This document shows, in pieces, positions 1-15,684 of a stretch of 64,000 bases of DNA. A program made the translations under genes and the position numbers. Source of the stretch: Coleofasciculus chthonoplastes F2-STO-03 (GTDB taxonomy: Bacteria > Cyanobacteriota > Cyanobacteriia > Cyanobacteriales > Coleofasciculaceae); NCBI GenBank assembly GCA_040222015.1, contig JAVJWO010000018.1, forward strand, positions 1-64,000. The letters are read 5' to 3'. Within the stretch, counting starts at the first letter, position 1. Each line of letters begins with the position of its first letter. The notes below the pieces were generated by a model that saw nothing but the letters and a program-made list of their open reading frames with translations, was not told the DNA's origin and ran no database searches.

Positions 1-1
1 A

Positions 2-124
2 GCCTTTCTGAATCAGCGTTTGCAGGGAACTCAAATTGAATCACTTTTACAAGGAGGTGGCTGTGATCTGTTCGAGTACACCATTATGGGTGAAATCAAC
101 AGGAATGTTCGTGCTGAACTCTAA
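2..124 (+). CDS. 3' end of a CDS running in from the left edge (...AFLNQRLQGTQIESLLQGGGCDLFEYTIMGEINRNVRAEL*), possibly a V4R-like small-ligand-binding domain
   Basis: Open frame from 2 to TAA at 122-124, translated by hand. The Q-I-E-S...G-C-D-L-F-E-Y pattern resembles V4R C-termini. It lies directly upstream of a Roadblock gene. Confidence 0.45.
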   Translation, partial: AFLNQRLQGTQIESLLQGGGCDLFEYTIMGEINRNVRAEL

Positions 125-213
125 GAGTAACAGCGTCGGGGGAATACGAGAAATCTCAGCTTTGAGTATCTATTACTGCAAAGACTGTTGGAAATTAAAC
201 AAGGAGTATCCAA

Positions 214-585
214 ATGGCGATTAACGCCGAAAAACTAGGAATGATCATCAAAGAGTTTGCTGCTGCCGCCTCTGATGTAGAAGGGGCTGCGGTTGTCACC
301 CCCGATGGTTTACCTCTGGCGACGACTTTACCCAGTGGTATGGATGACGAACGAGTTTCTGCGATGTCAGCGGCGATGCTTTCCTTAGGGGAACGGATTG
401 GTAAAGAATTAGTTCGCGGTACCATTGAACGTATTTATGTTGAGGGTGATAAAGGTTTGAGTATCCTCACCAGTTGTGGTGAAGATACCGTCTTTTTGGT
501 TCTGGCGACTAAAACGGCGAAGCAAGGACTGTTGATGTTGGACATCAAGCGCACCCTAGGTGAATTGCGGATGGTTCTGTCTTAA
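214..585 (+). CDS. Roadblock/LC7 (MglB-like) protein
   Basis: VEGAAVVTPDGLPLA and RVSAMSAAMLSLGERIG motifs; AGGAG RBS upstream. Confidence 0.92.
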   Translation: MAINAEKLGMIIKEFAAAASDVEGAAVVTPDGLPLATTLPSGMDDERVSAMSAAMLSLGERIGKELVRGTIERIYVEGDKGLSILTSCGEDTVFLVLATKTAKQGLLMLDIKRTLGELRMVLS

Positions 586-637
586 TGGATTGACCTATCT
601 AGTGCAAGAAAGCAGAAATAACTGAACAGCTAATATC

Positions 638-676
638 TCCCCCAGCTTCCCCAGCTCCCTCTGCTCCCCCTGCTTC
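638..676. repeat. CCCCAGCT(T/C)-type short tandem repeat; related tracts at ~45570-45650, ~57567-57645 and ~61941-62010
   Basis: Direct reading of ctcccccagcttccccagctcccctgctccccctgct. Confidence 0.8.
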
Positions 677-732
677 ATCGTATCTACGAAGCTGCTCAAG
701 TATTTTTGCCGCGCTGCACTAGGTAGATATAC

Positions 733-765
733 AGATCCCCGACTTCTTGAAGAAGTCGGGGATCT
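733..765. repeat. Perfect 16-bp-arm palindrome (dispersed REP-like element)
   Basis: agatccccgacttctt-g-aagaagtcggggatct. Confidence 0.85.
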
Positions 766-1229
766 TGCTTAGGTGGACAGGGGGGAAGTGGACGCTCATT
801 AACATTTCTTAGTAAAGTGAACAGAATTGTATGTCCAGATACTTATTTTGAAGTTAGCCGAGAATTTATGAGAAGCATGGCATAAAAGTATAAGAAATGT
901 TAACACTGTTTATCTAGAGGATGGGTCATAGTCAAAATATGAAGGCGCCAAGGGCTTACCATTGAAGGGTTTAGAGGCTAAACAGCTCAGCATCTATCTA
1001 TCTATAGGTAGAGATGAACTAGAATCAAGGCTTGAACTCAATTGTCGGTCTGACCTTCTCAGCGATCCATAAAGGGTCTCCCTTGATTGTAAATTTTTTT
1101 AAAAAAAGCTCATTTCTCCGGAGAAGTTCACTATACTGGGTTTTACCTTCGTAATTTCTTACATTACAGAAATTGATTAAAGGTTTGTTACATAAAGACC
1201 ATTTTTTATCCCCGATAGGAGGAACGTCC

Positions 1230-1613
1230 ATGGAAATGACAACCCGTGAAAACTTAACCAAGACTTATTCACTCAACGAAAAGGTCACAGGCTTCTTAAT
1301 TTGGACATTTACCCTAACGGTAAGTCTCTTAGTGGCAGGGTTTCCGCTGATTGTGTTAATGGTGGCGCTTGGAGCAATTATGGCGATTTCTTTGCAATCG
1401 CTTTTGCCGATTAGTGCCGTTTTGCTCGTCGCCGTTGGTTTGATTGGTGCGAATGTTTTGGGAATTGTATTCGGCGCTGCCGTTTTAACCTTCAAGGGCG
1501 TCAATCCGAAGGAAGTCCGTTGGTTGAGCTGGTTACATGGTGAGCAGAATATTCTGCATAAGTCAATTTTTGCAGCTTGCCCACTCACCTGTGATTATGA
1601 AGCTACAAAGTAG
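1230..1613 (+). CDS. Hypothetical integral membrane protein with several TM helices and a C-terminal ACPLTC motif
   Basis: AGGAGG RBS before ATG at 1230; long hydrophobic segments. Confidence 0.8.
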   Translation: MEMTTRENLTKTYSLNEKVTGFLIWTFTLTVSLLVAGFPLIVLMVALGAIMAISLQSLLPISAVLLVAVGLIGANVLGIVFGAAVLTFKGVNPKEVRWLSWLHGEQNILHKSIFAACPLTCDYEATK

Positions 1614-1688
1614 TACTCAACTGGATGTTTAACAATTTATCAACATAGCTGAATACACGGAGTAAGTTTTTCATCAAACGGTAGTGTG

Positions 1689-1712
1689 GCCCGGTTTTAA
1701 CCGGGTTTTTTC
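1689..1712 (+). terminator. Intrinsic terminator
   Basis: cccggtt-tt-aaccggg hairpin followed by a T-tract. Confidence 0.65.
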
Positions 1713-1751
1713 ATGTCTAAGAGTAATGTAGAGACAAGGCAACAAGCGTCT

Positions 1752-1857
1752 TATAGCAACCGCCATAGCTGTTAGGACACATCATTTATGTAGAGACTAG
1801 GCATGCTTAGTCTCTACAAGGGTGACGAAAGTCCTAATCGATGTGTCTACTGCTATA
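1752..1857. mobile_element. MITE-like element with TATAGC...GCTATA termini and an internal GTAGAGAC...GTCTCTAC palindrome
   Basis: Terminal inverted repeats visible; a related left end (tatagctgtcgccat...ttaggaca) recurs near 7550. Confidence 0.6.
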
Positions 1858-2064
1858 GTTTTACATCTCAAATGTAAACGCTATAGTAGCGAGCAAGATG
1901 CTCGCACTACCAGGATGAGAGCAATTACTGGCATTCAGCTTTAAAAGCCGAACAGCTTAAAGGTATAGAATGTCAATGATAAATAAAAAATTTTTCTGGC
2001 TTGACGTTAAAAACAAATACTTAACTACGTTGGCAATTCTCTAGCGATCGCATTAGACTTTAGC

Positions 2065-2377
2065 TTATCCGGCGATAGGTTCCCCACGCTCTAATCTTCG
2101 ATTGAGCGTGGGATGAATCGCCAGTTTATTAGCTTACAACTTGCTTGTTGTAAGCTAATATTAAGGGTAAATTGTTTTTGTATTTCATTGACAAAGCTGT
2201 AAAAGCTGGTAAATTGACAGCAAAAACTAAATTACATAACTACAGTTTCTCTTGCGATAAGCAAGAAGTGGGCTCTTGCTTATTCCCCACTATAAAACGC
2301 CGGAAGCGTCGTTCTGAAACGGAACCCCAAAGGAAGCCTACAACCTTACCCGTAGGGTCGGTGTAGGAGGACGTCAC
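2065..2377 (+). mobile_element. Non-autonomous IS200/IS605-derived element (left-end hairpin plus tnpB-type right end, no transposase or TnpB ORF)
   Basis: Left hairpin ggcgat...cccacgctc taatcttcgatt gagcgtggg...atcgcc. Right end gaagcctacaacc...ggtgtaggaggacgTCAC resembles cyanobacterial IS605 termini. Confidence 0.6.
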
Positions 2378-2544
2378 AAACCATACAGCTTGTTAGAGAC
2401 ATACCCGGTATGTCTCTACTTGTCAGGTAAGAAAATTTTCTGGCTAGTGCAAATTTGCCAATATTGGCTAAGGGATAAAGGGGGTTTCAAACGCGGATTT
2501 GGTATGACAAGGACTTCGCAATTCTTGTCATTAAGATTACAATA

Positions 2545-2648
2545 TATAGCGATCCTAAATAGATTGTGGCAATTTTCACGCACTGAGATCCTCGCTATAC
2601 ATGGGTTTCGAGCAGTTCACTTGTTGCATCCTATTTAGGATTGCTATA
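2545..2648. mobile_element. MITE-like element with 18-bp terminal inverted repeats
   Basis: tatagcgatcctaaatag ... ctatttaggattgctata. Confidence 0.7.
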
Positions 2649-2980
2649 GCGCTCTATTGTCATTCTGGCAAAAGAACGATCAAAGCTGATTGCTGAAAGC
2701 TATAGCTGCCAAGCATTTTGGCGTTAAGAAACTGATAGAAACTCATTAAATAGGGACTTCTATATTTAGTAATTAAAGATACTAAGTATAGGATGTTGCT
2801 GACTTCTATAACTTCTAATTTATTTTTCATATCTTCAATGAAACTTTATCAAAAGATGCCGGATATTATCTTACTTGGACAGAAAGGTTAATTGAAGCAA
2901 ACAGATAATGCTTGTTTGATTAGTCTCGGGCTACCAAGTGACTGAATCTGAATCCATTAAAATGTATTAGGAGCAAAAAA

Positions 2981-3352
2981 ATGCCGATTGACTCTGACAA
3001 AATGACCCGTATTCTCCACAACTTTGTCTCTAAGGTCTCTGATGTTGAGGGAGCTGCCGTGGTAACTCCAGATGGTTTGCCACTTGCATCCAGTTTACCC
3101 GGTGGTATAGATGATGTGCGGATATCTGCCATGTCAGCTACGATGCTGTCTCTGGGCGAGAAAGTTGGAGCTGAACTTGCTAAAGGTAGCATGGATCAAA
3201 TCAGCGTTGCCAGTGGTGAAGGGTTTAGCATTTTGACCAATTGTGGTAACGATGCTGTTTTAATCGTACTCGCTGGAAAAGATGCCAAACAGGGTGTTTT
3301 ACAGTTAGAGATCCAGCGTATCGTTAATGACTTGAAAGTGGCGATGAGGTAG
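2981..3352 (+). CDS. Roadblock/LC7 (MglB-like) protein, paralogue of 214..585
   Basis: SDVEGAAVVTPDGLPLA is identical to the first copy; same length (123 aa); AGGAG RBS. Confidence 0.92.
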   Translation: MPIDSDKMTRILHNFVSKVSDVEGAAVVTPDGLPLASSLPGGIDDVRISAMSATMLSLGEKVGAELAKGSMDQISVASGEGFSILTNCGNDAVLIVLAGKDAKQGVLQLEIQRIVNDLKVAMR

Positions 3353-3802
3353 TCTATTTAGCCAATTTATAAATTGACCAATTTGCGAAACAAATTGTAA
3401 TTTTTATCACCCAAATCTCATAATAAGATGTAGCCAAAGTTTGTCTATAAACTCAGTGAATAAGTGGGGCTGCATGAAAATTACAGTAAGTTTCTAGTAA
3501 ATGGGTACAGTCTTTTTAAGAGGACAGACTCAAGTCTCTATCGTCTCTCTTGTTAATCATCAAGAAGGGGAAGGATATTCCCTTTTCTGTAAAGTCTGAA
3601 TCAATCCAGTTTCAAGCTTCAGACGATGAGTTTTAACCTGAGTTGGACATTGGTTAACCAACTCAGTTAAAAAACAATCAAGGTATGGCATCTCCAATAC
3701 AGGGACATCCATCAAAAAACATCTAGGACTGGACTCGTTAGTAGCCTTAAATCAAACCAACGTTTATCAACCAGTCAACTGACACGATGTACTGTAGGAG
3801 AA

Positions 3803-4477
3803 ATGACAGCGATGAAATGGAAAGCGTTCATTGCCGAATTTATTGGTACGTTTGCCTTAATCTTCATTGGAGTCGGCGCAATCGCGGCAAACCATATTAC
3901 CAAAGGAGGCGCCGGACTAACGGGTATCGCTCTCGCCCATGGATTAACGATTGCGGTTATGGTGAGCGCCACAGCCGCCGTCAGTGGTGGACATCTGAAT
4001 CCCGCTGTGACATTTGGAGCATTGCTCACCGGTAAAATTGATCCCAAAAATGCGGGTGGATATGTTCTATTCCAGTGTTTAGGCGCAATTTTTGCCGCTA
4101 GTCTGATTAAACTGAGTATTCCCATTCAGGTTTTAAATGCCGTCAGTATGGGTACGCCAGCATTGGGATCAGGAATTAGTCCTATTGCTGGAGTGGCGAT
4201 GGAGTTTTTTCTGACATTCTTCTTAGTTTTCGTTATCTTCGGTACCGCCATTGATCCCCGCGCTCCCCAAGTTGGGGGCTTGTTTATTGGCTTAACCGTA
4301 GCCCTAGATATCCTTGCTGGAGGTCCTATCAGTGGAGGGGCGATGAATCCAGCACGGCATTTAGGACCCGCTTTATTAGGTGGAGGACTTGGTAATATTT
4401 GGGTGTATTGGGTGGGTCCCTTATTAGGGGGAGCTGCTGCGGCTTTACTGTACGAACTCACTTTGGCAAAATCTTAA
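3803..4477 (+). CDS. MIP-family aquaporin
   Basis: Two NPA boxes (GHLNPAVT, GAMNPAR), AEFIGTF start, WVYWVGP, six TM helices. Confidence 0.95.
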   Translation: MTAMKWKAFIAEFIGTFALIFIGVGAIAANHITKGGAGLTGIALAHGLTIAVMVSATAAVSGGHLNPAVTFGALLTGKIDPKNAGGYVLFQCLGAIFAASLIKLSIPIQVLNAVSMGTPALGSGISPIAGVAMEFFLTFFLVFVIFGTAIDPRAPQVGGLFIGLTVALDILAGGPISGGAMNPARHLGPALLGGGLGNIWVYWVGPLLGGAAAALLYELTLAKS

Positions 4478-4678
4478 AACTTGTCAATAGCCAAGGGGTT
4501 AGATCCCGGGTTGATTGACTAACAGTATGCTCTAGTATCGGGCGACCCGAGTTAATTGAGTGGACTTGCGTTTTTATTAATCTCAGCGGGTCGCCCCTAC
4601 AGGAGTCTAAATACACGTTATTAGACAAGCAACTGAACCATTGAATGAATTACGCTGTGTTGTTATGGAGTAAAATGA

Positions 4679-5221
4679 ATGAAATTTTTACGGGTGATTG
4701 TTGCCGGTCCTGTTAGTTCGGGGAAATCTACATTCGTGAAAACGGCTAGTGACACTGGCGTCATTGAAACCGAACGTTTCGCCACTGATTCCACATCTTT
4801 GTTGAAGCCTCAAACGACTGTTGCCTTTGACTTTAGTCGCCTGATCCTCAGTCCGGAAATGGAACTGCATCTCTACGGGACTCCTGGTCAATCCCGCTTT
4901 GAATTTATGTGGGATTTATTAATTCAAAGAGCTGATGCTTACATTTTGTTAGTAGCAGCCCATCGTGGGGATGATTTTTCCTCAGCTCGTGAAATTCTTG
5001 CCTATATGCACCAGCGTGTACAACTGCCGATGATCATTGGTCTTACTCATACCGATTGTCCAGACAGTAAGTCTGCAGAAGACGTGATCAGGGAATTAGG
5101 TTGTCTCGATGACGAAACATGTCCAAGCATCGTGACAGTTAATCCAATGGATAAAACCTCGGTGCTGAATATCCTAATGATGATAAAATCTCATATCCTT
5201 AAAGAGGTTGACATTAGCTAA
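4679..5221 (+). CDS. Small Ras-like GTPase (MglA group/CvnD-like ATP/GTP-binding protein)
   Basis: G1 GPVSSGKST, G2 TTVAFDF, G3 LYGTPGQ, RFEFMW, G4-like THTD. Confidence 0.9.
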   Translation: MKFLRVIVAGPVSSGKSTFVKTASDTGVIETERFATDSTSLLKPQTTVAFDFSRLILSPEMELHLYGTPGQSRFEFMWDLLIQRADAYILLVAAHRGDDFSSAREILAYMHQRVQLPMIIGLTHTDCPDSKSAEDVIRELGCLDDETCPSIVTVNPMDKTSVLNILMMIKSHILKEVDIS

Positions 5222-5411
5222 TTTTATGTCGTGACAGATAAAAATCAAGCTATTTTGAGTGGATTTTACGCTTATAGCTGGCGTTTTATAAAAACTTGTA
5301 GACAACCCTCAAACTCTTACAAATGACTAATGACAGATGACTAATGACAATCCCCACCTACTTAAGCGCGAGTGATGATGATCGTTTGGCGATAAACCAT
5401 TGGAGCAATCG

Positions 5412-7406
5412 ATGAGTGAAAATCAATCACGGTATGAATTACACTTTCATGGTCTAGTACAAGATGCGGTGACAGTTGAACCCAGTCAAGCGCAACAGAT
5501 TTATCAAAATAGTTTGACGCAACCGACGTCCAGCTATCAGTTACCTCTGCAACTGGCTGATTTTACGGGGCGTCAAGGGGAACTGGAACGCCTCACTGGG
5601 GTGTTAAAGCAGGCAATATCAAGTCCAGAACTCCAGGCGGCGATCGCACTGATTACAGGTGTCGCGGGAGTGGGCAAATCGGCTTTAGCGGTGCAAGTTG
5701 CTCACCAGCTACAATCTGAGTTTCCTGATGCTCAACTTTATGTCAACCTGCGCGGGAGTGAAGGACAACCTCTCGACCCCTTAGACGTACTTGCCGGGTT
5801 GCTGCGGGTTTGGGGGGTAGAGGATCAGTCAATACCTCAAAGTTTGAGTGAACGGTCTCAACTGTATCATTCTGTGATGGCAGGGAAACGGGTATTACTT
5901 ATCCTGGACAATGCCCGCGATGAGTTTCAGATTCGTCCTTTACTCCCTGAATGTTCCACTTGTGCTGTTCTAATTACTACTCGCCGCCAAATTAATGGGT
6001 TGGAAGAAGCGACGATTGTCGAGTTACCGGTGATGAGTGAACCCGAAGCGCGATCGCTCCTGGAAAATATTATTGGCGCAGAGGTAATCGCGGCTGAACC
6101 AGACGCTACTCAACACATTATTACTCAGTGCGATTATCTGCCGTTGGCGCTACGGATTACAGGCGGTTTTCTGCGCCAATCCCCCCACTGGAAACTGGCT
6201 GATTACGCCAGCAAGCTGGAACATGAACGACAGCGACTGGCACAAATGCACCTGAGTGATTTGTCGGTGCGCCCTAGCCTGGTGCTGAGTTATCAGTCAT
6301 TGGATGAAGCCTCGGCGCGTTTGTTCCGGTTACTGGGACTTTTAGTCGGTGTGAATTTTAAGGCGGAAGTCGCGCCGAGGTTGTTGGAGGTGGAACCTGC
6401 GATCGCGCAGCAAGCTTTTGATACGTTAGTAGCGTGGCAGCTTGTCACGCCGGTGAGTCAAGGGCGCTACCATTTCCATGATGTGGTGCGCCTGTTTGCC
6501 CGGGGACAGTTGGCGCAGCAGGAACCGGCTGATGTTCGCCAAGCGGCGCGATTGCGGCTAAGTCGTTGGTATCTGGAAACGGCGAAGGTTGTGGATTTGG
6601 CGATTAATCCAGAAACTCGCCGCTCCTTTGTCCAATCTGTGGTTAAGGGAAAAGATCAAGCGCCGACAGAGCGTCGTTGGCTGTTGACGGCTCTCTACTG
6701 GTTTGAAATCGAGCGCCCGAATATATTAGCGTCGGTGGAGTGGGCGCATCAAGCGGAGGCGTGGGATGTGGTGGTGTCTCTAGCTCAGAATTTGGTTAAT
6801 TTCTTTAATACCCATGGGTATTGGGGAGATTGGGAACGCACTCATGGATTAGCGTTGGAAGCCAGCCGAGAATTAGGCGATCGCGACAAAGAGGCGCAGA
6901 CGCTGATTAATTTGGGGAATGTGTATTCCTTAGAGGGTCAATGGGAGAAGGCAAACCAATGTTATCAGCAGAGTTTGGGTATTTTTAACGAGTTGAGCGA
7001 TCGCCCCGGAATGGCAAAGACGTTAAGTAATCTGGGAAATGTCTACTTTCAGCAGCAGCAGAACCAGAACGCGATCGATTGCTATCAGCAGAGTCTGTCC
7101 ATGTTCCAGGAGTTACGCGATCGCTACCGAGAAGGTCAGACGTTAGCCAATATGGGTATTTTCTCTGCTCAAAATAATCAGCCAGAACAAGCTATTCAGT
7201 TGTGGCAAGACTCGCTAACAAAACTTCATCCAAACTTGCCTAAGTTTCAACGAGTCGCTGAATGGTTACAGTCGATTAAAGGACAAAGCCTTGAAACCTC
7301 TTCTCCCACTCAGACGCCTCAGCCTCAGCGTCTCATTCTTTATTGGGGGGGCGTATTTATCCTGGTGATGAGTTTAATTCTGTCTATCATTATGTTAACG
7401 GGGTGA
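5412..7406 (+). CDS. NB-ARC (AfsR-like STAND) ATPase with TPR repeats and a C-terminal TM helix
   Basis: DFTGR, Walker A GVAGVGKS, Walker B LLILDNA, LITTR, LPLAL, FHD; TPR repeats (LGNVY...YQQSL); hydrophobic tail LILYWGGVFILVMSLILSIIML; GGAG RBS before ATG 5412. Confidence 0.9.
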   Translation: MSENQSRYELHFHGLVQDAVTVEPSQAQQIYQNSLTQPTSSYQLPLQLADFTGRQGELERLTGVLKQAISSPELQAAIALITGVAGVGKSALAVQVAHQLQSEFPDAQLYVNLRGSEGQPLDPLDVLAGLLRVWGVEDQSIPQSLSERSQLYHSVMAGKRVLLILDNARDEFQIRPLLPECSTCAVLITTRRQINGLEEATIVELPVMSEPEARSLLENIIGAEVIAAEPDATQHIITQCDYLPLALRITGGFLRQSPHWKLADYASKLEHERQRLAQMHLSDLSVRPSLVLSYQSLDEASARLFRLLGLLVGVNFKAEVAPRLLEVEPAIAQQAFDTLVAWQLVTPVSQGRYHFHDVVRLFARGQLAQQEPADVRQAARLRLSRWYLETAKVVDLAINPETRRSFVQSVVKGKDQAPTERRWLLTALYWFEIERPNILASVEWAHQAEAWDVVVSLAQNLVNFFNTHGYWGDWERTHGLALEASRELGDRDKEAQTLINLGNVYSLEGQWEKANQCYQQSLGIFNELSDRPGMAKTLSNLGNVYFQQQQNQNAIDCYQQSLSMFQELRDRYREGQTLANMGIFSAQNNQPEQAIQLWQDSLTKLHPNLPKFQRVAEWLQSIKGQSLETSSPTQTPQPQRLILYWGGVFILVMSLILSIIMLTG

Positions 7407-7762
7407 AACATCTAATCCACTGGCTCGTTTTTAGAGCTACACAAATCGATAAATTAACTTTATAAAACTATACATAATTGGCTACAAAAAAATTACCAGA
7501 TGTTCCGGATTCTGGAGGCAATTAGGGAAAAGCTTGAATAGCCTTAATGGTATAGCTGTCGCCATAAAGGTTAGGACAGATTGAAAGGCTGAAACAACCA
7601 TGTACACATAATAAACCTTCCTTATGCCCTCTGCCTTTTCCCATTCCTTCAAAATATTCATACTTTTATCATAAAACAAGCAGACAATACTCTAGAAAAA
7701 TTGCTAAAACTAAAGAAGACTCTATTTTGAGACTTACCCTAAAATCCAGATCAGAGAAAAAT

Positions 7763-8044
7763 ATGACCCTGAACGCTTATGATTTTTTGCAAAAAATGCA
7801 AGATCGGATTCATTTCACTGAAACCAATAAATCCCTCTTGAAATCCCAGGCTGATTGGGGAAAAGAAATTGCACCAGAGGTAGCCGAACAGTTCTACGCC
7901 TACTTAGGCAGCGATCCAGAAATGAATGCAATTTTAAATCACACACCTGATCGCATCCATCGGCTCCGGGAAACCTTTGTTCAGTGGTTTTACGAAATGT
8001 TTACGGGTATGGAGTCTAAATGGTTAGACAACACTAAGGGTTAG
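7763..8044 (+). pseudogene. Truncated protoglobin/globin-coupled-sensor-type globin (N-terminal half only)
   Basis: AEQFYAYL...PEMNAIL...RLRETFVQWFYEMFTG matches the sensor-globin B-E helices. The frame stops at 93 aa, before any proximal His helix. Confidence 0.7.
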
Positions 8045-8176
8045 CTAATTAATTTCGGGTGTAGTGCAATTCCGGGTAATTTTATATTTTTTTACAGTAG
8101 TGTGCTGTAAATAAGTTACTCGCTTAACGGATCTGACATTCATAAACTTAGGTGAAATACTGCGGAGAAAAATATA

Positions 8177-8824
8177 ATGGAAACAATGCGTCTTGTCGTA
8201 ACCGGAACAGTGGGTGCTGGTAAATCAACTTTTGTACGAACCTTTAGTCAAACGACAGTAATTGACACAGAACGCAAAGCGACAGATAACACATCGTTAA
8301 TCAAGAAACGCACAACTGTTGCTTTCGATTTCGGTACGCGCCTTTTAGGTCGGGAGATGGAGTTACAAGTTTATGGGACTCCCGGTCAATCGCGCTTTGA
8401 TTTTATGTGGGATTTATTGATTCGTCGCGCTCATGCCTATATTTTACTGGTGGCAGCCAATCGTTCTAGCTCTTTTAATGATGCTCGCGAAATTATCTCG
8501 TTTATGAACAGCCGAGTCCAAATTCCGATGATGATTGGTCTAACTTGTATGGATTTACCTGGCGCTTTGGGACAAGAGCATATTGCCTTTGCTCTCGGCT
8601 TTATGAATGACAAAAACCGACCGCCCATTGTTACAGTAAATCCTAATGAAAAAACGTCGGTGTTTGAAGCATTAATGGTGTTAATGGCTCACCAGTTGTT
8701 ACAAAGTAGTAAGAGTAAAGGAAATGCCGCCTTGGGAAATGTGGGAGGTAGTCGTCAAGCTGAACCCCTGAAGTCAAGAACGAAGTATCAGTGGCCCAAG
8801 CAACAGTTTTCATCAGGGCTATAG
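8177..8824 (+). CDS. Small Ras-like GTPase (MglA group/CvnD-like), paralogue of 4679..5221, with a basic C-terminal extension
   Basis: GTVGAGKST, TTVAFDFG, VYGTPGQSRFDFMW. Confidence 0.9.
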   Translation: METMRLVVTGTVGAGKSTFVRTFSQTTVIDTERKATDNTSLIKKRTTVAFDFGTRLLGREMELQVYGTPGQSRFDFMWDLLIRRAHAYILLVAANRSSSFNDAREIISFMNSRVQIPMMIGLTCMDLPGALGQEHIAFALGFMNDKNRPPIVTVNPNEKTSVFEALMVLMAHQLLQSSKSKGNAALGNVGGSRQAEPLKSRTKYQWPKQQFSSGL

Positions 8825-8918
8825 GATTTGATCCCAAGTTGCGTTGGTTCTAACCTGTCTGATGAGAGCGAAGCGAAGAATCTGGTCTGAACCATCAACG
8901 GTGAAGACAGTACAAAAT

Positions 8919-8968
8919 GGCTATCCTTACTACCCCAGCCAAGACGGTGGGAGGGATAGCCGCTTTTG
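8919..8968 (+). terminator. Hairpin, possible terminator after the second GTPase
   Basis: ggctatcc...ggatagcc stem followed by gctttt. Confidence 0.45.
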
Positions 8969-9180
8969 GGTGATTTCCCAGAAAGCTAGACTGAGGTATG
9001 ATAAAGAGTAGACTTATCTTAGCAAGGGTTAGCTGACTTATGCGATCGCAGTTGCTTCTTCTCCCGTCGGCAAAATTTGGCTAGTGCCGTGGGGCGGTCA
9101 GTACTGACCCGCGCAAATCTCCTAATCTATAAAGATGACAAAATTTTAATACTTTAATTATTGTCAGTATTTTTTTGATC

Positions 9181-11316
9181 ATGATGGGGCGCATCTTACC
9201 AGAAGGCGAACAATTGAATTTATCAGGTGAGGACATTTCTGAGTCTGACTTCAATATTCAGCAGGCTCAAGAGGTTATTTATCAATTTTTGCTCAAAATT
9301 GTTCATCACAATCCCCCAGAAACTGTATTACAAGAGTTTCGCCAATTATTTATATTTGGTAAAGAGCCGATTGAGCCTCATGTAAAAACGGCACTTGATA
9401 CAATTATTGCCAGCAAAAATGACAAAGAATTCAGAAATACTTTAAAACGATCTTGTTATATTTTAATTAATAACTGGTCTTCAAAACGCCGTTATGATTT
9501 TATTCAAAACCTGATTCAGTTAGTTGGTGATCCTCCGCTCAAGCCAACAACTCTATCCCCTCCACTGAGTCGGCTAAAAGGGTATGTTGCTAATTTTGTT
9601 GATAGCCACGATTATCAAGAACTTAAATTATTTTCGGCTCCCTATACGGCTGAATATGAAGCTGAAAAACAGCACTGGAGTCATCGGTATACATCTTATT
9701 TATTAGTTCCCCAATATCTGGACTCTCGCAATCCAATTGAACAGCGAGAAACTGCAAAAAATTTGTCTAGACGGCTGAGGAAAAAATTTAAGTTCGATCT
9801 AGCCATGTATACGGCTCGATATGATTCTTCTAATTTCAACTCCGAGAAAAAAATTATTAATCCAACTCGTCTAGGTTCTCATGTCATCCAACTGATTAAA
9901 AAAATAAGCTCTCGGCAACTGTTAGTTAATTGTCGTAGTTATGCGGAGCAGTTAAGTAAAAATATTAACCAGAAAAAGTATTGTGACTTTAAGCAAGATT
10001 TTAAAAAATATTTATTGTTTTTAATAAATGTACCCCTTTATTCAGGAATCATAAATGATTATTTATTTTCTAGATTAGATACTCTTTATGAAAATCATCA
10101 TGAAAGTCCGATTAGTGGTGACTTGCTGCTACGAACATGTCGGCGAATGATTGAAGTACTAACAACTGAAAATGGTCGAGAACCTTCAACTCTATTTATT
10201 TTGTTAACCAATCGTGGCAACCCTTTGACGATAGTCGTGATTCTCCTCAAAATTATTTTACTTTGTAAATATGCTCAAACGCATTTGGATGTTTGTATTG
10301 CCCAATTAATTCAATATTACGAGAATTCTACAGAAAAAGAATGTCAGTGGTTGATTAATTTCTTGGAAGTTTTCAAGATTGTTTTTGCCATTTGTACCGA
10401 AGACACTCAATATAACCTGGTTAAGCTCAGTGATAATGACGGTGAGCCAGATGCTTGTGTTATGGATCTTGAAGAGTATCGCGTCTTTTCCCAGTTGAAA
10501 GGAACGGATCTGCGGAGCGCTGATTTAAGAGGAACAGATATCCGTTATATGGATCTCAGAGCCGCAGATTTACGGGAGGCTGATTTGGCGGGGGCTGATT
10601 TGAGCAAAGCCGACTTGAGTCTTGCCAAACTCAGTCAGACAAACTTAAGCGGTGCCATGCTTGATCGCACTGAGTTAAGCGGTGCGATGCTTCAAGATGC
10701 TAATTTGAGCGGTGCGAGTCTCAGTGAAGCCAATCTACGTTGTGCTGACCTGCGACAAGCTAATCTATGCTGTGCAATTTTAAAGAGCGCTAAACTGCGC
10801 CGTGCTAATCTCCAGCAAGCCGATCTGAGTGGTGCTGACTTAAGTAATGCTAGCTTGAATTCTGCGAATCTAGTGAATGCCAACCTGCGCTATGCTGATC
10901 TGAGCAATGCCGATCTCAGTGAAGCCAATCTTAAGGATGTAGATCTCAGGGATGCTAATCTTAGATGCGCTCAACTCAATTGGACTCAGCTAAACCACGC
11001 CAATTTAAGTAGTGCTAACTTGGATCGGGCTGACCTCAGTTATGCCAGTTTGTGTCATGCTAATCTTCAGAAAACGGACTTAACTCGCACAGATTTGAGC
11101 AATAGTAACCTCAGTAGAAGCGATATGAGCAAAGCTTTGCTACGTCACGTTAATTTGACGGGGGCAAATCTCAATCATGCTAATCTTATTGGTGCCAACC
11201 TGTTTAATGCAAATCTCACGGATGTGAAGGTTAAGGGAACTCGATTTGGAAATAATTCTGGACTCTCTGAGCCAATGAAGCGAGAACTCAAACAACAGGG
11301 TGCAATTATTGGGTAA
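9181..11316 (+). CDS. Uncharacterised ~430-aa N-terminal domain fused to C-terminal pentapeptide repeats
   Basis: A(D/N)Lxx repeats from about residue 440 to the end; the N-terminal region is homologous to the next gene. Confidence 0.9.
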   Translation: MMGRILPEGEQLNLSGEDISESDFNIQQAQEVIYQFLLKIVHHNPPETVLQEFRQLFIFGKEPIEPHVKTALDTIIASKNDKEFRNTLKRSCYILINNWSSKRRYDFIQNLIQLVGDPPLKPTTLSPPLSRLKGYVANFVDSHDYQELKLFSAPYTAEYEAEKQHWSHRYTSYLLVPQYLDSRNPIEQRETAKNLSRRLRKKFKFDLAMYTARYDSSNFNSEKKIINPTRLGSHVIQLIKKISSRQLLVNCRSYAEQLSKNINQKKYCDFKQDFKKYLLFLINVPLYSGIINDYLFSRLDTLYENHHESPISGDLLLRTCRRMIEVLTTENGREPSTLFILLTNRGNPLTIVVILLKIILLCKYAQTHLDVCIAQLIQYYENSTEKECQWLINFLEVFKIVFAICTEDTQYNLVKLSDNDGEPDACVMDLEEYRVFSQLKGTDLRSADLRGTDIRYMDLRAADLREADLAGADLSKADLSLAKLSQTNLSGAMLDRTELSGAMLQDANLSGASLSEANLRCADLRQANLCCAILKSAKLRRANLQQADLSGADLSNASLNSANLVNANLRYADLSNADLSEANLKDVDLRDANLRCAQLNWTQLNHANLSSANLDRADLSYASLCHANLQKTDLTRTDLSNSNLSRSDMSKALLRHVNLTGANLNHANLIGANLFNANLTDVKVKGTRFGNNSGLSEPMKRELKQQGAIIG

Positions 11317-11616
11317 AGAGTCCTCAGTTATCAGTTATCAGTTATCAGAGATTAGACAGTGATGCTTCTCGCCGATAAAGCTAAACCCGCCTCCATCTCC
11401 CAGATACGCCATAGCACGTCTGGACTATTGCTCCCCCATCTCTTTTATCTCCCTGGCATCCCCGCTCCCCAAGATGCTACGGATTTTGGTTAGAATAAAT
11501 GTTTCCGATAAAGGATATTTTGGGAAAAGGTTAAACTAGAGGCAGAGACTGTCGCCGCTATGGAGCAGTAGAGACAGATAACCACCAGGATTAGCCAACT
11601 CAGATTTTGCCTATTT

Positions 11617-13923
11617 ATGGAGGGGAGCATCATACCAGACAATCAGCAAATCGATTCTTCGGCTGATGGAGAATCAAAGCAGCAACGGATTCAGCAAGCT
11701 CAGGAGGTTATTTTTCAATTCCTCATCGATCGAGTGGAAAATGACCCTCCAGAAGCTGTTTTGCAGGACTTTAAGCAGTTATTTTTTTCCAGTGAGTGTA
11801 CACAAAATCCAGACGTCGCTCGCTCAATGTATGAGCTGCTTGAGCAAAAGAATGAGCAAGAATTCAGAAATACTCTGAAGCGGTCTTGCTATATTTTAAT
11901 TAACAATTGGTTGGCAAGTCGGCGCTCAGACTCGATAGAGGAGTTGATTCAAACGCTGGCTAAGGCGAACCTACTTAAATCTACTGTATCTCAGACCCTG
12001 AATCGTTTGAGAACGTGGATTGCTAATTTTATTGAAAGCCAGGACTATCAAGAACTTAAAGTCTTTACCTCAAGCCGTACCGAACGTCGAGGGTGGAGTC
12101 ATCGCTATGCTTATTATTTATTATTACCGCAATATTTAGATTCTCAAAACCCAGTTGAGCAGCGGGAATTAGCTAAGAAAACGGCAAAACGGTTAAAAGA
12201 AAAGTTTAAATTTGAGCTAGCAATGTACACCGTGCATTGTAATTCGCCAACCTTTAAAAAGGAACCGCCCCCGAATCCCACTCGACTGGGCAATGGAATC
12301 ATTCGTCTGCTCAAACAACTGATATCGCGTAAGTTTCTGCACAGTTATTCCCATACTGCTGATGTGTTTGTTCAGCAAAGTAAAACGCTGACTTATCGAG
12401 ACTTTAAGCAGAAATTACTCGACTATTTACTCTTTTCAACGAGTCCTCACCAGTCGATTGATTTTTTCAAAAAGACCCTGACCGAAAAACTAGAGATGCT
12501 CTATGAGTCATACAATGAGGAAACGACGACCATGGAGTTATTACTGCGGACGTGTCGGCGCACCTTGGAATTTTTAACCACAGAAAATGGGCAGGAACCC
12601 TCCCCGCTCTTTATCACTCTCACCAGCCAAGGCAGTCCTCTGACAATTGTAATTCTCCTGCTAAAAATTATTTTATTGTGTAATTATGTTCGCACTCATT
12701 TAGATAATTGTATTGCCAATCTAATTCGCTATTACGAAAAATATTCGGAAACAGAATGTCGGTTGTTTATTAATTTTTTGGACATTTTTAATGTTGTCTT
12801 TGCCATTTATACCGAGAATGTGCAGTTTGATATCGTCAAAATTAAGAAGGGCGAATCAGCGGTTTCTGAGTTGGAGGCATACCGCATTTTTTGCCAATTG
12901 AAAGGCGCTGATCTACGCGGGAGCGATCTCAAGGGGGCTGACATTCGCAATAGTGATTTGAGTGCTGCCGATTTGCGGGAAGCAAATCTCAGCAGTGCTG
13001 ATCTGAGTGAGGCGAATTTGAGTCTGGCTAAATTGGGGGGCGCTAATTTAAGTAGTGCCATACTCATGGGGGCTGATTTAACGGTTACTGACTTGAATTC
13101 TGCCAATCTCAATGGCGCTAACCTAAATAACGCCAATCTGAGTCGTTCAAACTTGCAAAACATTAATCTGCGTCGCGCCAGTTTGATTGGGGCGAAACTG
13201 CGACATACCAACCTTCAACAGGCGGATCTCAGCCATGGGAATTTGAATCAGGCAATTCTCACGGGTGCCAATCTCAAGAATGCCAATTTACGACAAACTA
13301 GCCTCCAGTACGGGGATTTAAGTGAGGTTGACTTGAGTGAGGCGAACCTGAGTCAGGCTAACTTAACAGGTGCAGACTTACAGCGCAGCAAATTGGATCA
13401 AGCGACTTTAGAGGGGGCAATTTTAGAACAGGCAAATCTGAGCGGAGCCAGTCTATTCAGAGCCGATTTGAGCCAAGCGAATCTGAGCAATGCTCAACTG
13501 AATCAGGCGATGTTAAGGGGAGCTAATTTAAAGGAGGTGCGATTGCGTCGTGCTATCCTCAGTCATGCCAATTTAGAAGGGGCAAATCTAAGTCGCGCTG
13601 ATTTGAGTCGTGCTGATTTAAGTCATTTAAATCTCAGGGGAGCTGATTTGAGTCATACGTTTCTGCGTCATGTCAACTTGACGAATGCGGATTTGAGACA
13701 AGCCAATCTCACAGGCGCGAATCTTTTCAATGCTAATCTGAGTGGTGTGAAGGTTGAGGGAGCTATATTTAAGCAAAATGCGGGATTATCTGCGGCTCAG
13801 GGGCGAGAATTAGAACAGCGAGGGGCTACGGTTGAGTTGAGTAAGCTAGAATCTCGCGATCGCAATGTCTGGCGAAATCCCGTTCCTCCACATCCCCTAT
13901 TGCCGAACCAATCTGAAAATTAG
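11617..13923 (+). CDS. Tandem paralogue: uncharacterised N-terminal domain plus a longer pentapeptide-repeat tract
   Basis: Shared motifs QQAQEVI.QFL, EFRNTLKRSCYILINNW, WSHRY, LLLRTCRR, TTENG.EPS; pentapeptide C-terminus. Confidence 0.9.
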   Translation: MEGSIIPDNQQIDSSADGESKQQRIQQAQEVIFQFLIDRVENDPPEAVLQDFKQLFFSSECTQNPDVARSMYELLEQKNEQEFRNTLKRSCYILINNWLASRRSDSIEELIQTLAKANLLKSTVSQTLNRLRTWIANFIESQDYQELKVFTSSRTERRGWSHRYAYYLLLPQYLDSQNPVEQRELAKKTAKRLKEKFKFELAMYTVHCNSPTFKKEPPPNPTRLGNGIIRLLKQLISRKFLHSYSHTADVFVQQSKTLTYRDFKQKLLDYLLFSTSPHQSIDFFKKTLTEKLEMLYESYNEETTTMELLLRTCRRTLEFLTTENGQEPSPLFITLTSQGSPLTIVILLLKIILLCNYVRTHLDNCIANLIRYYEKYSETECRLFINFLDIFNVVFAIYTENVQFDIVKIKKGESAVSELEAYRIFCQLKGADLRGSDLKGADIRNSDLSAADLREANLSSADLSEANLSLAKLGGANLSSAILMGADLTVTDLNSANLNGANLNNANLSRSNLQNINLRRASLIGAKLRHTNLQQADLSHGNLNQAILTGANLKNANLRQTSLQYGDLSEVDLSEANLSQANLTGADLQRSKLDQATLEGAILEQANLSGASLFRADLSQANLSNAQLNQAMLRGANLKEVRLRRAILSHANLEGANLSRADLSRADLSHLNLRGADLSHTFLRHVNLTNADLRQANLTGANLFNANLSGVKVEGAIFKQNAGLSAAQGRELEQRGATVELSKLESRDRNVWRNPVPPHPLLPNQSEN

Positions 13924-13993
13924 TCATTTGTCATTTGTCATTTGTCATTTGTCCTTTGTCATTTGTCATTTGTCATTCGTCATTTGTCCTTTG
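13924..13993. repeat. STRR heptamer tract (TCATTTG)n
   Basis: About 10 copies directly after the stop codon. Confidence 0.9.
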
Positions 13994-14322
13994 TTAGGGA
14001 GCTGCGTAAAAATAAAGTACCAGTATTTGTAGGGTGGGTTAGGCGGGAACTAAATGATGGCACATAGCCGTTCAATGAACTATCCGCCGTAACCCACCAC
14101 ATTGAGTGGAGGACAACCCGACTAAATTGAGTGAATTTTCTCATTAATCAGGAGATTAAATAAAGGAATTGTGAACCCGTTTAAGTCAGAACCCTTCTGG
14201 AATCAGCTTAAAGCCACGCAACGCGATCGCGTTTATATTTTCGACTAATGTAGCGAGCAAGATGCTCGCACTACGGCAAGGATTTCGTCATTATTGACAT
14301 TAAGGTTTAAATACCAAACAGA

Positions 14323-15684
14323 TTAACCAGGATTGAGGACTTCATTGCTAGAGGTTTTATTAGCTCGTTCGGGATTGGGTTGTAAGGGTTCAGGTAATGA
14401 TTGAACGGCTCCCCACTGGCTAGTAAAACTTTGCAGCAGTGCTTCTTGTTGGGCGCGAAAGCCTTCTAGGTTGTAACCCCTATTCATCGTCGAAAACCAG
14501 ATAATTCCCTGCTGCTGCGTGGGTAAAGCTCCGCCTAAAGCGCTGACATTATTTAAACTTCCGGATTTAACAATGGCGAATGGGGGAAGCGGACGTTCAT
14601 TTAAAATCCCTTCATCTTGTCCAACAACCGCCAATATATCACCAAGGGTCATGTTATAGGGCTGAAGATATCGGGCAATGGCGAGAAATAAACCAGAAGC
14701 CGCACGGGGAGAAATCTTGTTTTGATCGCTTAATCCAGAACCATTAACTAACGTAATTTCCGCTTGAGGAACGCCTGTGGCGGCGGCGGCTTGTTGGGCG
14801 ACAACATTTGCTCCCCCGACGGAGTTGGCGAGCATTTCTGCCATTTTATTATTGCTATATTGATTCATTTTTTTGATCAGTTCAGCCAGGGGAAAGGAAT
14901 AGTGGCGAATCAGGGGTTGGACGTTGCTAGGAGGGGTGGGGGAGACTTGTACCGAACCCGCGATCGCAACTTGAGGTTTGGGGGTGTCTGGGGGTAGGGT
15001 TTGATACTGGGTTTGGGCTTCAGGAGTCCAGAGTTGATGATTTAACCCTTGTCTGAGGAGTGTCCCGGATTTGAGGGGATCAAACTCAAAGTTCATGTAA
15101 AATTTGCCTGTGATGATTAAATTCCCAGCTACCTGCTGAATACCCATCTGATTGAGGAGATTACCGATCGCGATCGCTTCTTCCCACACAAAGAATGGAT
15201 CTTCTCCCCCTTCAATCACTAAGTCTCCCTGGAGAACGCCGTTTTCTACTACACCCGTTGCGCCGATGAGGGTGATGAACTGGTGATCGGGACCAAAGGT
15301 TTGCAAAGCGGCGAGGGAGGTGGCGATTTTGGTGATAGAAGCCGCAGGTAAGGGAACGGTACCTTGATAATTCGCTAGCAGAGTATTTCCCGCTTGAATC
15401 CAGATCCCATGATTTTCCTTGGCAAATCCTTTGGCGGCTAAACCATTCATGTACTGCTCGATTTGCGCCTGGATCGCCGGATCGGGATTATCTGGAGAAG
15501 CGAGTGAGGGAATGGTTGGTTTTTGCGTCAATTCCGCTGCTGCTGGACTTTCAGCCACTGAGACACTATCGATCTCGTTTTCGTTGGCAGAAGGTTGGGA
15601 GGGATTAGATTGAGGGGAACATCCAACGGTAAAGGTTAGGAGAGTTAGGGATAGTACAGTTGTCCAAGAAAGGGGTTTGATCAT
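14323..15684 (-). CDS. dacB: D-alanyl-D-alanine carboxypeptidase/endopeptidase (peptidase S13, PBP4-like), lipoprotein
   Basis: SxxK (ASITK), SNN, KSG motifs; GGEDP; NGSGLS; lipobox-like TVGC. Confidence 0.85.
   Translation of the reverse strand: MIKPLSWTTVLSLTLLTFTVGCSPQSNPSQPSANENEIDSVSVAESPAAAELTQKPTIPSLASPDNPDPAIQAQIEQYMNGLAAKGFAKENHGIWIQAGNTLLANYQGTVPLPAASITKIATSLAALQTFGPDHQFITLIGATGVVENGVLQGDLVIEGGEDPFFVWEEAIAIGNLLNQMGIQQVAGNLIITGKFYMNFEFDPLKSGTLLRQGLNHQLWTPEAQTQYQTLPPDTPKPQVAIAGSVQVSPTPPSNVQPLIRHYSFPLAELIKKMNQYSNNKMAEMLANSVGGANVVAQQAAAATGVPQAEITLVNGSGLSDQNKISPRAASGLFLAIARYLQPYNMTLGDILAVVGQDEGILNERPLPPFAIVKSGSLNNVSALGGALPTQQQGIIWFSTMNRGYNLEGFRAQQEALLQSFTSQWGAVQSLPEPLQPNPERANKTSSNEVLNPG

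Follow-up and report, generated by a model that had tools for sequence, protein, structure and literature searches.

The first 64 kb of contig C18 in the 7.7-Mb genome of the cyanobacterium Coleofasciculus chthonoplastes F2-STO-03 (labelled G000), which we refer to as the window, start at a contig end with a row of genes for Roadblock/LC7 proteins, small GTPases of the MglA family, V4R and globin proteins, and an NLR-like STAND ATPase of the NB-ARC-TPR type. The initial annotation of this DNA had described a cyanobacterial module of Roadblock and small-GTPase genes, duplicated and accompanied by V4R and globin partners, and the loci that we mapped in related genomes bear this out. The data suggest that the NLR-like protein has its fixed partner in the Roadblock protein more than in the GTPase. 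We propose that a Roadblock hub fed by sensors serves the GTPases and docks on the NB-ARC-TPR protein as an output switch, and that passenger genes were inserted later; to this we give an even chance. The narrower claim, that Roadblock/LC7 dimers fed by haem-globin and V4R sensors would directly bind and control an NLR-type STAND, even without a GTPase, is put forward tentatively, as one rather more apt to fail than to hold.

Linkage of an NLR-like protein to Roadblock genes

An orthologue of the NB-ARC-TPR gene was found in 26 of 61 genomes, with one match each. In 25 of the 26 it lies within 5 kb of a GTPase gene; 21 of the 26 have a same-strand GTPase gene no more than 700 nt upstream. Linkage to the module in related genomes was the check that the initial annotation had called for, and the NB-ARC-TPR gene passes it, with nine further linked loci outside the family. 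A scan of a species collection, covering 6 of its 64 parts, returned 80 loci, 70 of them actinobacterial. Two of the six non-family cyanobacterial loci among the 80 have a Roadblock gene directly upstream, and none of the 70 actinobacterial loci has a Roadblock or GTPase neighbour by the cyanobacterial profiles used, although divergent members may escape these. Searches in the vicinity of these two genomes (two partly overlapping sets of 61 genomes) gave eight further NB-ARC copies, seven of them linked. Outside the family, seven loci thus have Roadblock followed by NB-ARC, and two (G471, G486) have the order globin-Roadblock-Roadblock-GTPase-GTPase followed by NB-ARC. The linked NB-ARC proteins of these loci are 36-42% identical to that of the window; the gaps measure about 70-260 nt, and most flanking genes differ between lineages. 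A Roadblock gene also stands directly upstream of NB-ARC in G024 and at locus L077. A phylum-wide search, insensitive in that only three candidates were scored per genome, found NB-ARC in 3 of 401 genomes, all in the family.

In a quick tree of 47 rows, a branch (SH-aLRT 99.8) separates all 29 linked NB-ARC copies from the others, which are 6 unlinked cyanobacterial ones and 12 of the 70 from actinobacteria; five near-identical genus rows, the broken copies of G028 and G029, and the partial copy of L124 were left out. Two genomes, G487 and G454, each consisting of one contig of about genome size, have a single Roadblock gene (PF03259), and it is directly upstream of NB-ARC. Both genes of the pair are intact, with about 70% Roadblock identity. 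No GTPase of this type was found in either genome by protein, family or alignment search, and the GTPase protein query did match G452, G472 and G513 in the same search. Both genomes keep a globin elsewhere, and G454 also a V4R. In G452, G472 and G513, the Roadblock-NB-ARC pair lies apart from a canonical Roadblock-GTPase-PATAN locus. PATAN was found in none of the mapped NB-ARC loci, and NB-ARC in none of the mapped PATAN loci. At L104:3178-4419, a pentapeptide-repeat protein follows the Roadblock-NB-ARC pair; its N-terminus is unrelated to the Sll1247 domain discussed below.

The NB-ARC-TPR protein ends in a hydrophobic helix, and most copies share this C-terminal membrane helix. Its best solved relative over both NB-ARC and TPR is AfsR (E 3e-80 with a single sequence, 2e-123 with a profile). 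The match begins at AfsR residue 280, and the score against NF053617 is 380 for a cut-off of 1430: the SARP domain is missing. Domain searches found no SARP and no enzyme or pore-type effector domain in the protein. Its STAND motifs GVAGVGKS, LLILDNA, ITTR, YLPLAL and FHDVV, followed by the TPRs, agree with an AfsR-like NOD; we take them to be Walker A, Walker B, the sensor-1 Arg, and the GLPL-like and MHD-type motifs. The first four are kept in all 17 copies displayed and the MHD-type His-Asp in 15. R380 and R384, in the numbering of that display, are among the residues specific to the linked clade. The gene shows a ratio of nonsynonymous to synonymous substitution (dN/dS) of 0.13-0.19 in all five genus comparisons. 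Together with the GTPase gene before it (GTP1), it forms a segment (4679-7406) with two allele classes in the genus, at a synonymous divergence (dS) of 0.4-0.7 versus mostly 0.1-0.4 for the neighbours. The allele classes of the two genes are mixed in G001, and the segment appears to have undergone allele exchange.

PADLOC 2.0.0 gave only a generic TPR model and no system-specific anti-phage match. A check for amyloid signalling (BASS) found a short N-terminal segment and Roadblock/GTPase neighbours; comparison by eye, the only one made, gave no shared motif. In Nodosilinea (L081:7280-10001), an unlinked NB-ARC-TPR gene stands behind a small gene whose product has a C-terminal G/N/Q-rich stretch that by eye resembles the NLR N-terminus, possibly an amyloid-signalling pair; the Roadblock-linked clade has an N-terminal segment different from that of the Nodosilinea NLR.

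The window has two Roadblock genes, RB1 and RB2. In a quick tree, RB1 shares a clade (SH-aLRT 98) with the Roadblocks that immediately precede NB-ARC in G024 and G029, and it was for this reason chosen for complex prediction. We modelled two RB1 chains with NB-ARC residues 1-624. The pairing of the Roadblock dimer with NB-ARC-TPR scored 0.52, versus 0.00 for the best control; runs agreed in at least 38% of contacts, and partner pLDDT was at least 82. Among solved pairs, 116 of 157 reach the score mark, as do 2 of 215 mismatches, counts that are only roughly valid for the alignments used; scores up to 0.60 include only 18 of the 157 solved pairs and both mismatches. The model thus weakly supports a predicted binding of the Roadblock dimer to NB-ARC-TPR. 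Searches of solved structures returned AfsR for the NB-ARC side and Roadblock entries for the other.

Proposed mechanism and its alternatives

In the mechanism that we propose, V4R and globin sensors would feed Roadblock dimers, the hub. Gene order, the co-duplication of V4R and Roadblock genes in tandem, and a natural globin-Roadblock fusion in print (HGbRL; PMC4476040, available text) suggest this input. The Roadblock would likely set the nucleotide state of the MglA-type GTPases in a GTPase-activating protein (GAP)-like manner, by analogy with MglB, described as a GAP-like platform for its GTPase (PMC10933270, available text), and with MfpD, a Roadblock proposed as a GAP (PMC13015309, available text). 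The dimer would also dock, as the model predicts, on the AfsR-like NB-ARC-TPR ATPase, likely the output switch of the locus. Its binding would shift the STAND from the closed ADP state to the ATP state, at the membrane in most copies; the analogy is with AfsR, in which ATP binding relieves NOD-TPR inhibition (PMC10936776; 10.64898/2026.09.02.748808; available texts). The NLR-like switch would stand in place of the usual PATAN output. What this output might do is a guess, and a doubtful one: a surface-behaviour response, such as gliding or pilus control, to a change in oxygen or redox state, suggested by the PATAN protein that serves this module as its other output. Work that reportedly connects PATAN with pili is the source of this guess.

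An ancient family, the Roadblock proteins have been proposed as regulators of NTPases; the tested bacterial cases that we know of concern small GTPases, and we know of no activating partner for most bacterial NB-ARC-TPR proteins. If the proposal is true, a two-protein switch would wire an MglB/Ragulator-type platform to an NLR-type molecular switch in cyanobacteria, and two signalling devices so far studied apart would be joined through this binding. A Roadblock-STAND pair that persists without the GTPase would give a bacterial NLR that has no effector domain a small and soluble activator (or guardee) that can be tested, and the cyanobacterial G-protein module, catalogued but unstudied, would gain a second output. 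Our literature search, with most subscription journals outside it, found no paper containing both 'NB-ARC' and 'roadblock LC7'.

Several observations weigh against this proposal. NB-ARC is dispensable: 11 of the 35 family genomes with the GTPase gave no match to it, and the gene is split in G028 and cut short in G029. RB1 lies 4.8 kb from NB-ARC in the window, where the gene now before NB-ARC is GTP1, not the ancestral neighbour. Family-level synteny alone is weak evidence, because unrelated upstream genes persist as well: of the 17 non-genus family genomes that were mapped, 12 also have the saccharopine-dehydrogenase-like gene upstream, and crtO is near the locus even in G452 (3.5 kb). Kin are not independent, and the linkage appears to have arisen once. 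G447 and G448 are incomplete, so that their missing GTPase counts little. Finally, the structural support is weak: by the tool's own grading, a score like this is wrong more often than not, except for a guess that was likely beforehand.

The strongest alternative, which we nevertheless consider unlikely, is that NB-ARC-TPR is an effector of the GTP-bound GTPase and that deletions left the Roadblock-NB-ARC pairs behind. MglA of Myxococcus is known to have TPR effectors (SgmX); the GTPase directly precedes NB-ARC in 21 of the 26 relatives and in G471 and G486, and NB-ARC occupies the slot that PATAN has in canonical loci. However, it is the Roadblock that stands directly upstream in the seven non-family loci, in G024 and at L077, and the two single-contig genomes keep both genes of the pair intact where no GTPase was found. 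Moreover, the allele classes of GTP1 and NB-ARC are not co-inherited in the genus, as G001 shows.

A guard would bind the Roadblock too, and in a second, distinctly unlikely alternative NB-ARC-TPR is an immune-type guard of the Roadblock/GTPase module (or of a phage product) that triggers growth arrest, the module being the guarded target and not the input. NB-ARC/TPR proteins of filamentous bacteria have been proposed as immune receptors (10.1101/2020.01.06.895854, available text), and the patchy loss of the gene and the allele exchange of its segment would suit such a role. The missing enzyme or pore-type effector domain and the merely generic PADLOC match do not, nor do the single copy, the fixed position and the purifying selection.

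Less likely again is the absence of any functional link, with an AfsR-like gene that landed once and has since been carried by passive synteny or block transfer. The single origin, the frequent loss of NB-ARC and the equally persistent upstream genes, crtO included, are what this would predict. Adjacency, however, persists where the proteins have diverged by about 60% and most other neighbours are gone, and the gaps are still about 70-260 nt. All 29 rows of the clade are linked, and the complex score, weakly positive, comes with null controls.

The island and its likely passenger genes

Around GTPase matches in relatives we fetched 40 regions of up to 20 kb each and clustered their open reading frames. 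In the genus, the island reads saccharopine-dehydrogenase-like gene, V4R, (GNAT, reversed), V4R, Roadblock, globin, Roadblock, GTPase. It continues with two to four [V4R-Roadblock] units, the membrane gene, the [RB2, aquaporin, GTP1] block, NB-ARC, globin, GTP2 and the twin pentapeptide genes. The largest set, in G002, comprises 6 V4R, 7 Roadblock, 3 GTPase and 2 globin genes. In the other genera of the family the island is shorter, as a rule globin-Roadblock-GTPase-V4R-Roadblock-GTPase-NB-ARC. An RsbW / receiver-PP2C / STAS partner-switching trio, crtO and the saccharopine-dehydrogenase-like gene persist upstream in many family genomes (L036, L057, L059, L063, L166). GTPases of this type occur in 42 of the 61 genomes (family members: 35 of 36; other families: 6 of 24), and G000 itself has a separate canonical locus, Roadblock-PATAN-GTPase-PATAN, on contig C139.

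The window is only the tail of this island. Contig C19 (1,522 nt; L002) carries a V4R tail, a Roadblock gene (95%) and the start of a further V4R; since it repeats the first genes of the window and opens another unit, the assembly breaks inside the tandem array. The upstream half, from RsbW to the third GTPase in relatives, is missing from the G000 assembly. The NB-ARC protein is identical to one on record from a 7.78-Mb contig, and a closed assembly thus probably exists. Eleven genes fill 1-13,923 at the places given by the initial annotation, which had put every credible gene of the first 14 kb on the + strand; all 11 are there on that strand, and the longer - strand frames are antisense to + strand genes and behave as shadows.

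Table 1. Features of the first 13,923 nt of the window
Feature	Position	Strand	Family, motifs and status
Stand-alone V4R, 3' end	2-124	+	Last unit of the tandem [V4R-Roadblock] array; core component
Roadblock/LC7 RB1 (MglB-like)	214-585	+	Pfam Robl_LC7; core component
Small membrane protein	1230-1613	+	Widespread cyanobacterial family; passenger, in the island only in this genus
Terminator-like hairpin	1688-1707	+	3' of the small membrane gene; pattern match only
Divergent Roadblock RB2	2981-3352	+	Pfam Robl_LC7; first gene of the RB2-aquaporin-GTP1 block
Aquaporin	3803-4477	+	Pfam MIP; genus-restricted passenger
MglA-family GTPase GTP1	4679-5221	+	Pfam ATP_bind_1/Ras-like; G2 TT, G3 GTPGQ, G4 THTD
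AfsR-like STAND ATPase	5412-7406	+	Pfam NB-ARC + TPR; short N-terminal segment, NB-ARC, TPRs, C-terminal membrane helix
Single-domain sensor globin, broken	7763-8044	+	Pfam Protoglobin; Tlr1989 family; C-terminal half deleted
MglA-family GTPase GTP2	8177-8824	+	Pfam ATP_bind_1/Ras-like; C-terminal tail
Sll1247_N/C + pentapeptide repeats, copy 1	9175-11316	+	Pfam; passenger
Sll1247_N/C + pentapeptide repeats, copy 2	11617-13923	+	Pfam; passenger; all-helical domain

Intergenic gaps of 644 and 1,367 nt within the row, together with the hairpin behind the membrane gene, argue against a single transcript. The promoter and terminator scans are at chance level (14 terminator-like sites versus 13.1 in shuffles), and Rfam found nothing in 1-15,000. 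The gaps at 586-780, 1714-1960, 2014-2400, 4528-4620 and 5272-5370 contain small dispersed repeats that have about 20-110 matches in the genome; of these stretches, 2014-2400 presumably resembles an IS200/IS605-type end remnant.

What had been annotated as a possible V4R tail proved to be real. Its product matches residues 132-171 of a full G002 gene at 92.5%, and the model of the neighbouring full-length G002 paralogue (pLDDT 88, 63-row alignment) has the PoxR/MopR/Bet3 fold in Foldseek (E 2e-6 to 4e-6, probability 1.00), with TRAPP chains also among the matches. As in V4R/Bet3 proteins, helices in this paralogue pack against a four-stranded sheet, and there are two GxxxG pairs with nearly invariant glycines (G45/G49 and G124/G128); the Pfam V4R model misses it despite the fold match. 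In the last V4R class (the window gene, L037:201-713 and L002), two conserved cysteines are changed to Asp and Ser and one Cys is gained near the C-terminus, which suggests that a site for a ligand, a metal or redox chemistry has changed. No V4R-Roadblock or V4R-GTPase fusion turned up among 1,401 longer candidates; three natural PATAN(DUF4388)-V4R fusions (P0241-P0243) occur there, a hint that V4R and PATAN may act in one pathway. The globin fragment, too, is confirmed, as a deletion remnant: it has 93 aa versus 184 aa in relatives, through the loss of 298 nt relative to G002. The deletion removes the conserved His-bearing half and leaves the window copy without a complete globin fold; most relatives have intact copies, and full-length globins match the solved Tlr1989 at E 9e-79. 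The tail of the island turns over quickly, the second globin being deleted or decayed in G001 and G008 and NB-ARC broken in G028 and G029 (L038:9530-9847, L046 near 10,200, L066:6339-7923, L050:11963-12424).

The initial annotation had also placed the aquaporin, the membrane protein and the pentapeptide twins in the set, and had named a lack of linkage in related genomes, together with no detected interaction, as what would speak against its reading. For these three elements linkage does not support the reading. The membrane gene occurs in 51 of the 61 genomes and inside the island in all nine genus genomes, but near the GTPase in none of the 32 non-genus genomes that have both. Close homologues of the aquaporin were found only in seven of the nine genus genomes; G004 and G008 lack it together with the whole RB2-aquaporin-GTP1 block, an unlinked paralogue at 76% occurs in five, and other genera reach at most 42%. 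Outside the genus, 20 genomes have the long Sll1247-pentapeptide form, and one of them (G016) has a GTPase within 10 kb of it; the distances in the best-resolved assemblies are 56 kb, 419 kb and 1.45 Mb, many others being fragmented, and in G024 and G029 the twins are paired away from GTPases. We conclude that these three elements are likely later insertions that can be set aside as passengers. Because they are under purifying selection (dN/dS 0.02-0.29), the passengers probably work, but not evidently for the Roadblock/GTPase module. We hold it very improbable that they are working parts of one system newly assembled in the genus, even though they are co-oriented and under this selection, the aquaporin sits between RB2 and GTP1, G016 also has a GTPase followed by an Sll1247-pentapeptide gene, and the mycobacterial pentapeptide protein MfpA binds a conservon GTPase (PMC4316618, available text).

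The best solved relative of the aquaporin is plant TIP2;1 (E 1e-39). The residues that we take to be the TIP2;1 selectivity filter (His, Ile, Gly, Arg) align with it and the loop-C His does not; the protein may pass ammonia or peroxide. The 430-aa domain that the annotation had noted in the twins is the known but uncharacterised pair Sll1247_N/Sll1247_C (PF27130/PF27138), a widespread family. Its model is good (pLDDT 85). As a recognisable guanine-nucleotide exchange factor, GAP or enzyme it was rejected, Foldseek having found nothing at E up to 0.001; a wide VIA search gave generic helical-bundle matches only (best Z 8.3 over 116 residues), with no clear solved-fold match. Some paralogues stand alone, and one, of 902 aa, has the domain fused behind an AAA_35 ATPase domain (L005:3661-6366 on G000:C155; L003, L004).

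Classification and comparison with known systems

Both GTPases are single P-loop domains of at most 240 aa (180 and 215 aa) whose GPVSSGKS and GTVGAGKS fit GxxxxGK[ST]. Both have TTVAFDF, with Thr for the Arg finger, and YGTPGQ, the catalytic type that defines MglA groups 2-5 (PMC4316618, available text). Group 5 is the only MglA group that the available text of the same source lists for cyanobacteria. G4 reads THTD and TCMD in the window and not the [NT]KxD of Group 5; PATAN-linked cyanobacterial copies also have no Lys. The window GTPases are, by their motifs, apparently MglA-family proteins of the groups 2-5 type, not formally filed in Group 5 because the G4 Lys is missing. As for the Group 5 context, Roadblocks are present, and PATAN is found at the C139 locus and not in the island. 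GTP2 is the orthologue of the GTPase in the globin-Roadblock-GTPase units of G016, G024 and G029. GTP1 was considered as the ancestral NB-ARC partner and rejected, as in the GTPase tree it clusters (100/100) with a stand-alone copy of G007 and is not the orthologue of the GTPase before NB-ARC in other genera; an example of the ancestral upstream GTPase is L057:11473-12039. The G007 island is without GTP1, and this GTP1-clade gene (L055:11078-11716, on G007:C70) has no Roadblock nearby.

Roadblock dimers and Ras-like GTPases are shared with the MglA/MglB polarity switch of Myxococcus and Thermus (Group 1). Unlike there, both the intrinsic Arg finger and TVPGQ are missing, and a polarity role is unsupported here. 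Actinobacterial conservons (CvnA-D, Mfp; Group 2) likewise combine a Roadblock with a GTPGQ-type GTPase in repeated operons, but the window has no histidine kinase CvnA and no CvnC, and neither the NxFD G4 nor the DAR G5. A pentapeptide gene follows the mycobacterial conservon, whereas the window twins are unlinked to the module outside the genus.

The eukaryotic TRAPP core and Asgard archaea offer another parallel, in that V4R/Bet3, Roadblock (longin-related) and small GTPase folds stand side by side. V4R has been linked to Bet3 (PMC2253512, available text). Joint encoding of TRAPP-type components is uncommon in MK-D1 according to the available text of PMC10933270; in the locus of the window they are encoded together. 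Unlike in TRAPP, the Roadblock is not a longin and the GTPase is MglA-type and not a Rab, and V4R scores equally with the phenol sensors PoxR/MopR. With V4R (Bet3-fold), Roadblock and GTPase at one locus, a bacterial TRAPP-like arrangement would be directly testable.

The NB-ARC-TPR protein resembles AfsR, the SARP-NOD-TPR protein of Streptomyces (PDB 8JKE/8K60), in its P-loop and MHD-type latch, and AfsR is a signalling rather than an immune STAND. Because the window protein has no N-terminal SARP, it cannot activate transcription in the same way; it also differs in the C-terminal membrane helix of most copies and in its pairing with Roadblock/GTPase genes. The amyloid-NLR preprint (10.1101/2020.01.06.895854) does not mention Roadblock or GTPase in its available part.

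The closest known systems are the cyanobacterial MglB-MglA-PATAN modules catalogued in 2015 as MglA Group 5, such as the tlr1990 operon and Cyan7425_5249 (Wuichet and Sogaard-Andersen, PMC4316618, Table S2, available text). They share with the window a cyanobacterial Roadblock and a small GTPase with Thr for the Arg finger and a GTPGQ G3. Tlr1989, the solved relative of the globin, is numbered just before the tlr1990 operon, and G000 has its own PATAN locus. The initial annotation knew of no described system with this combination; the core had in fact been described, and the NB-ARC component is apparently unreported. V4R, protoglobin and NB-ARC gave no matches in the three supplementary files of PMC4316618 that were searched. 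Unlike Group 5 modules, the island is without PATAN and has NB-ARC-TPR instead, it carries tandem V4R-Roadblock arrays, and its G4 motifs depart from [NT]KxD. Overall, the island represents a catalogued module expanded at the genus level, together with three passenger elements and one apparently unreported conserved component.

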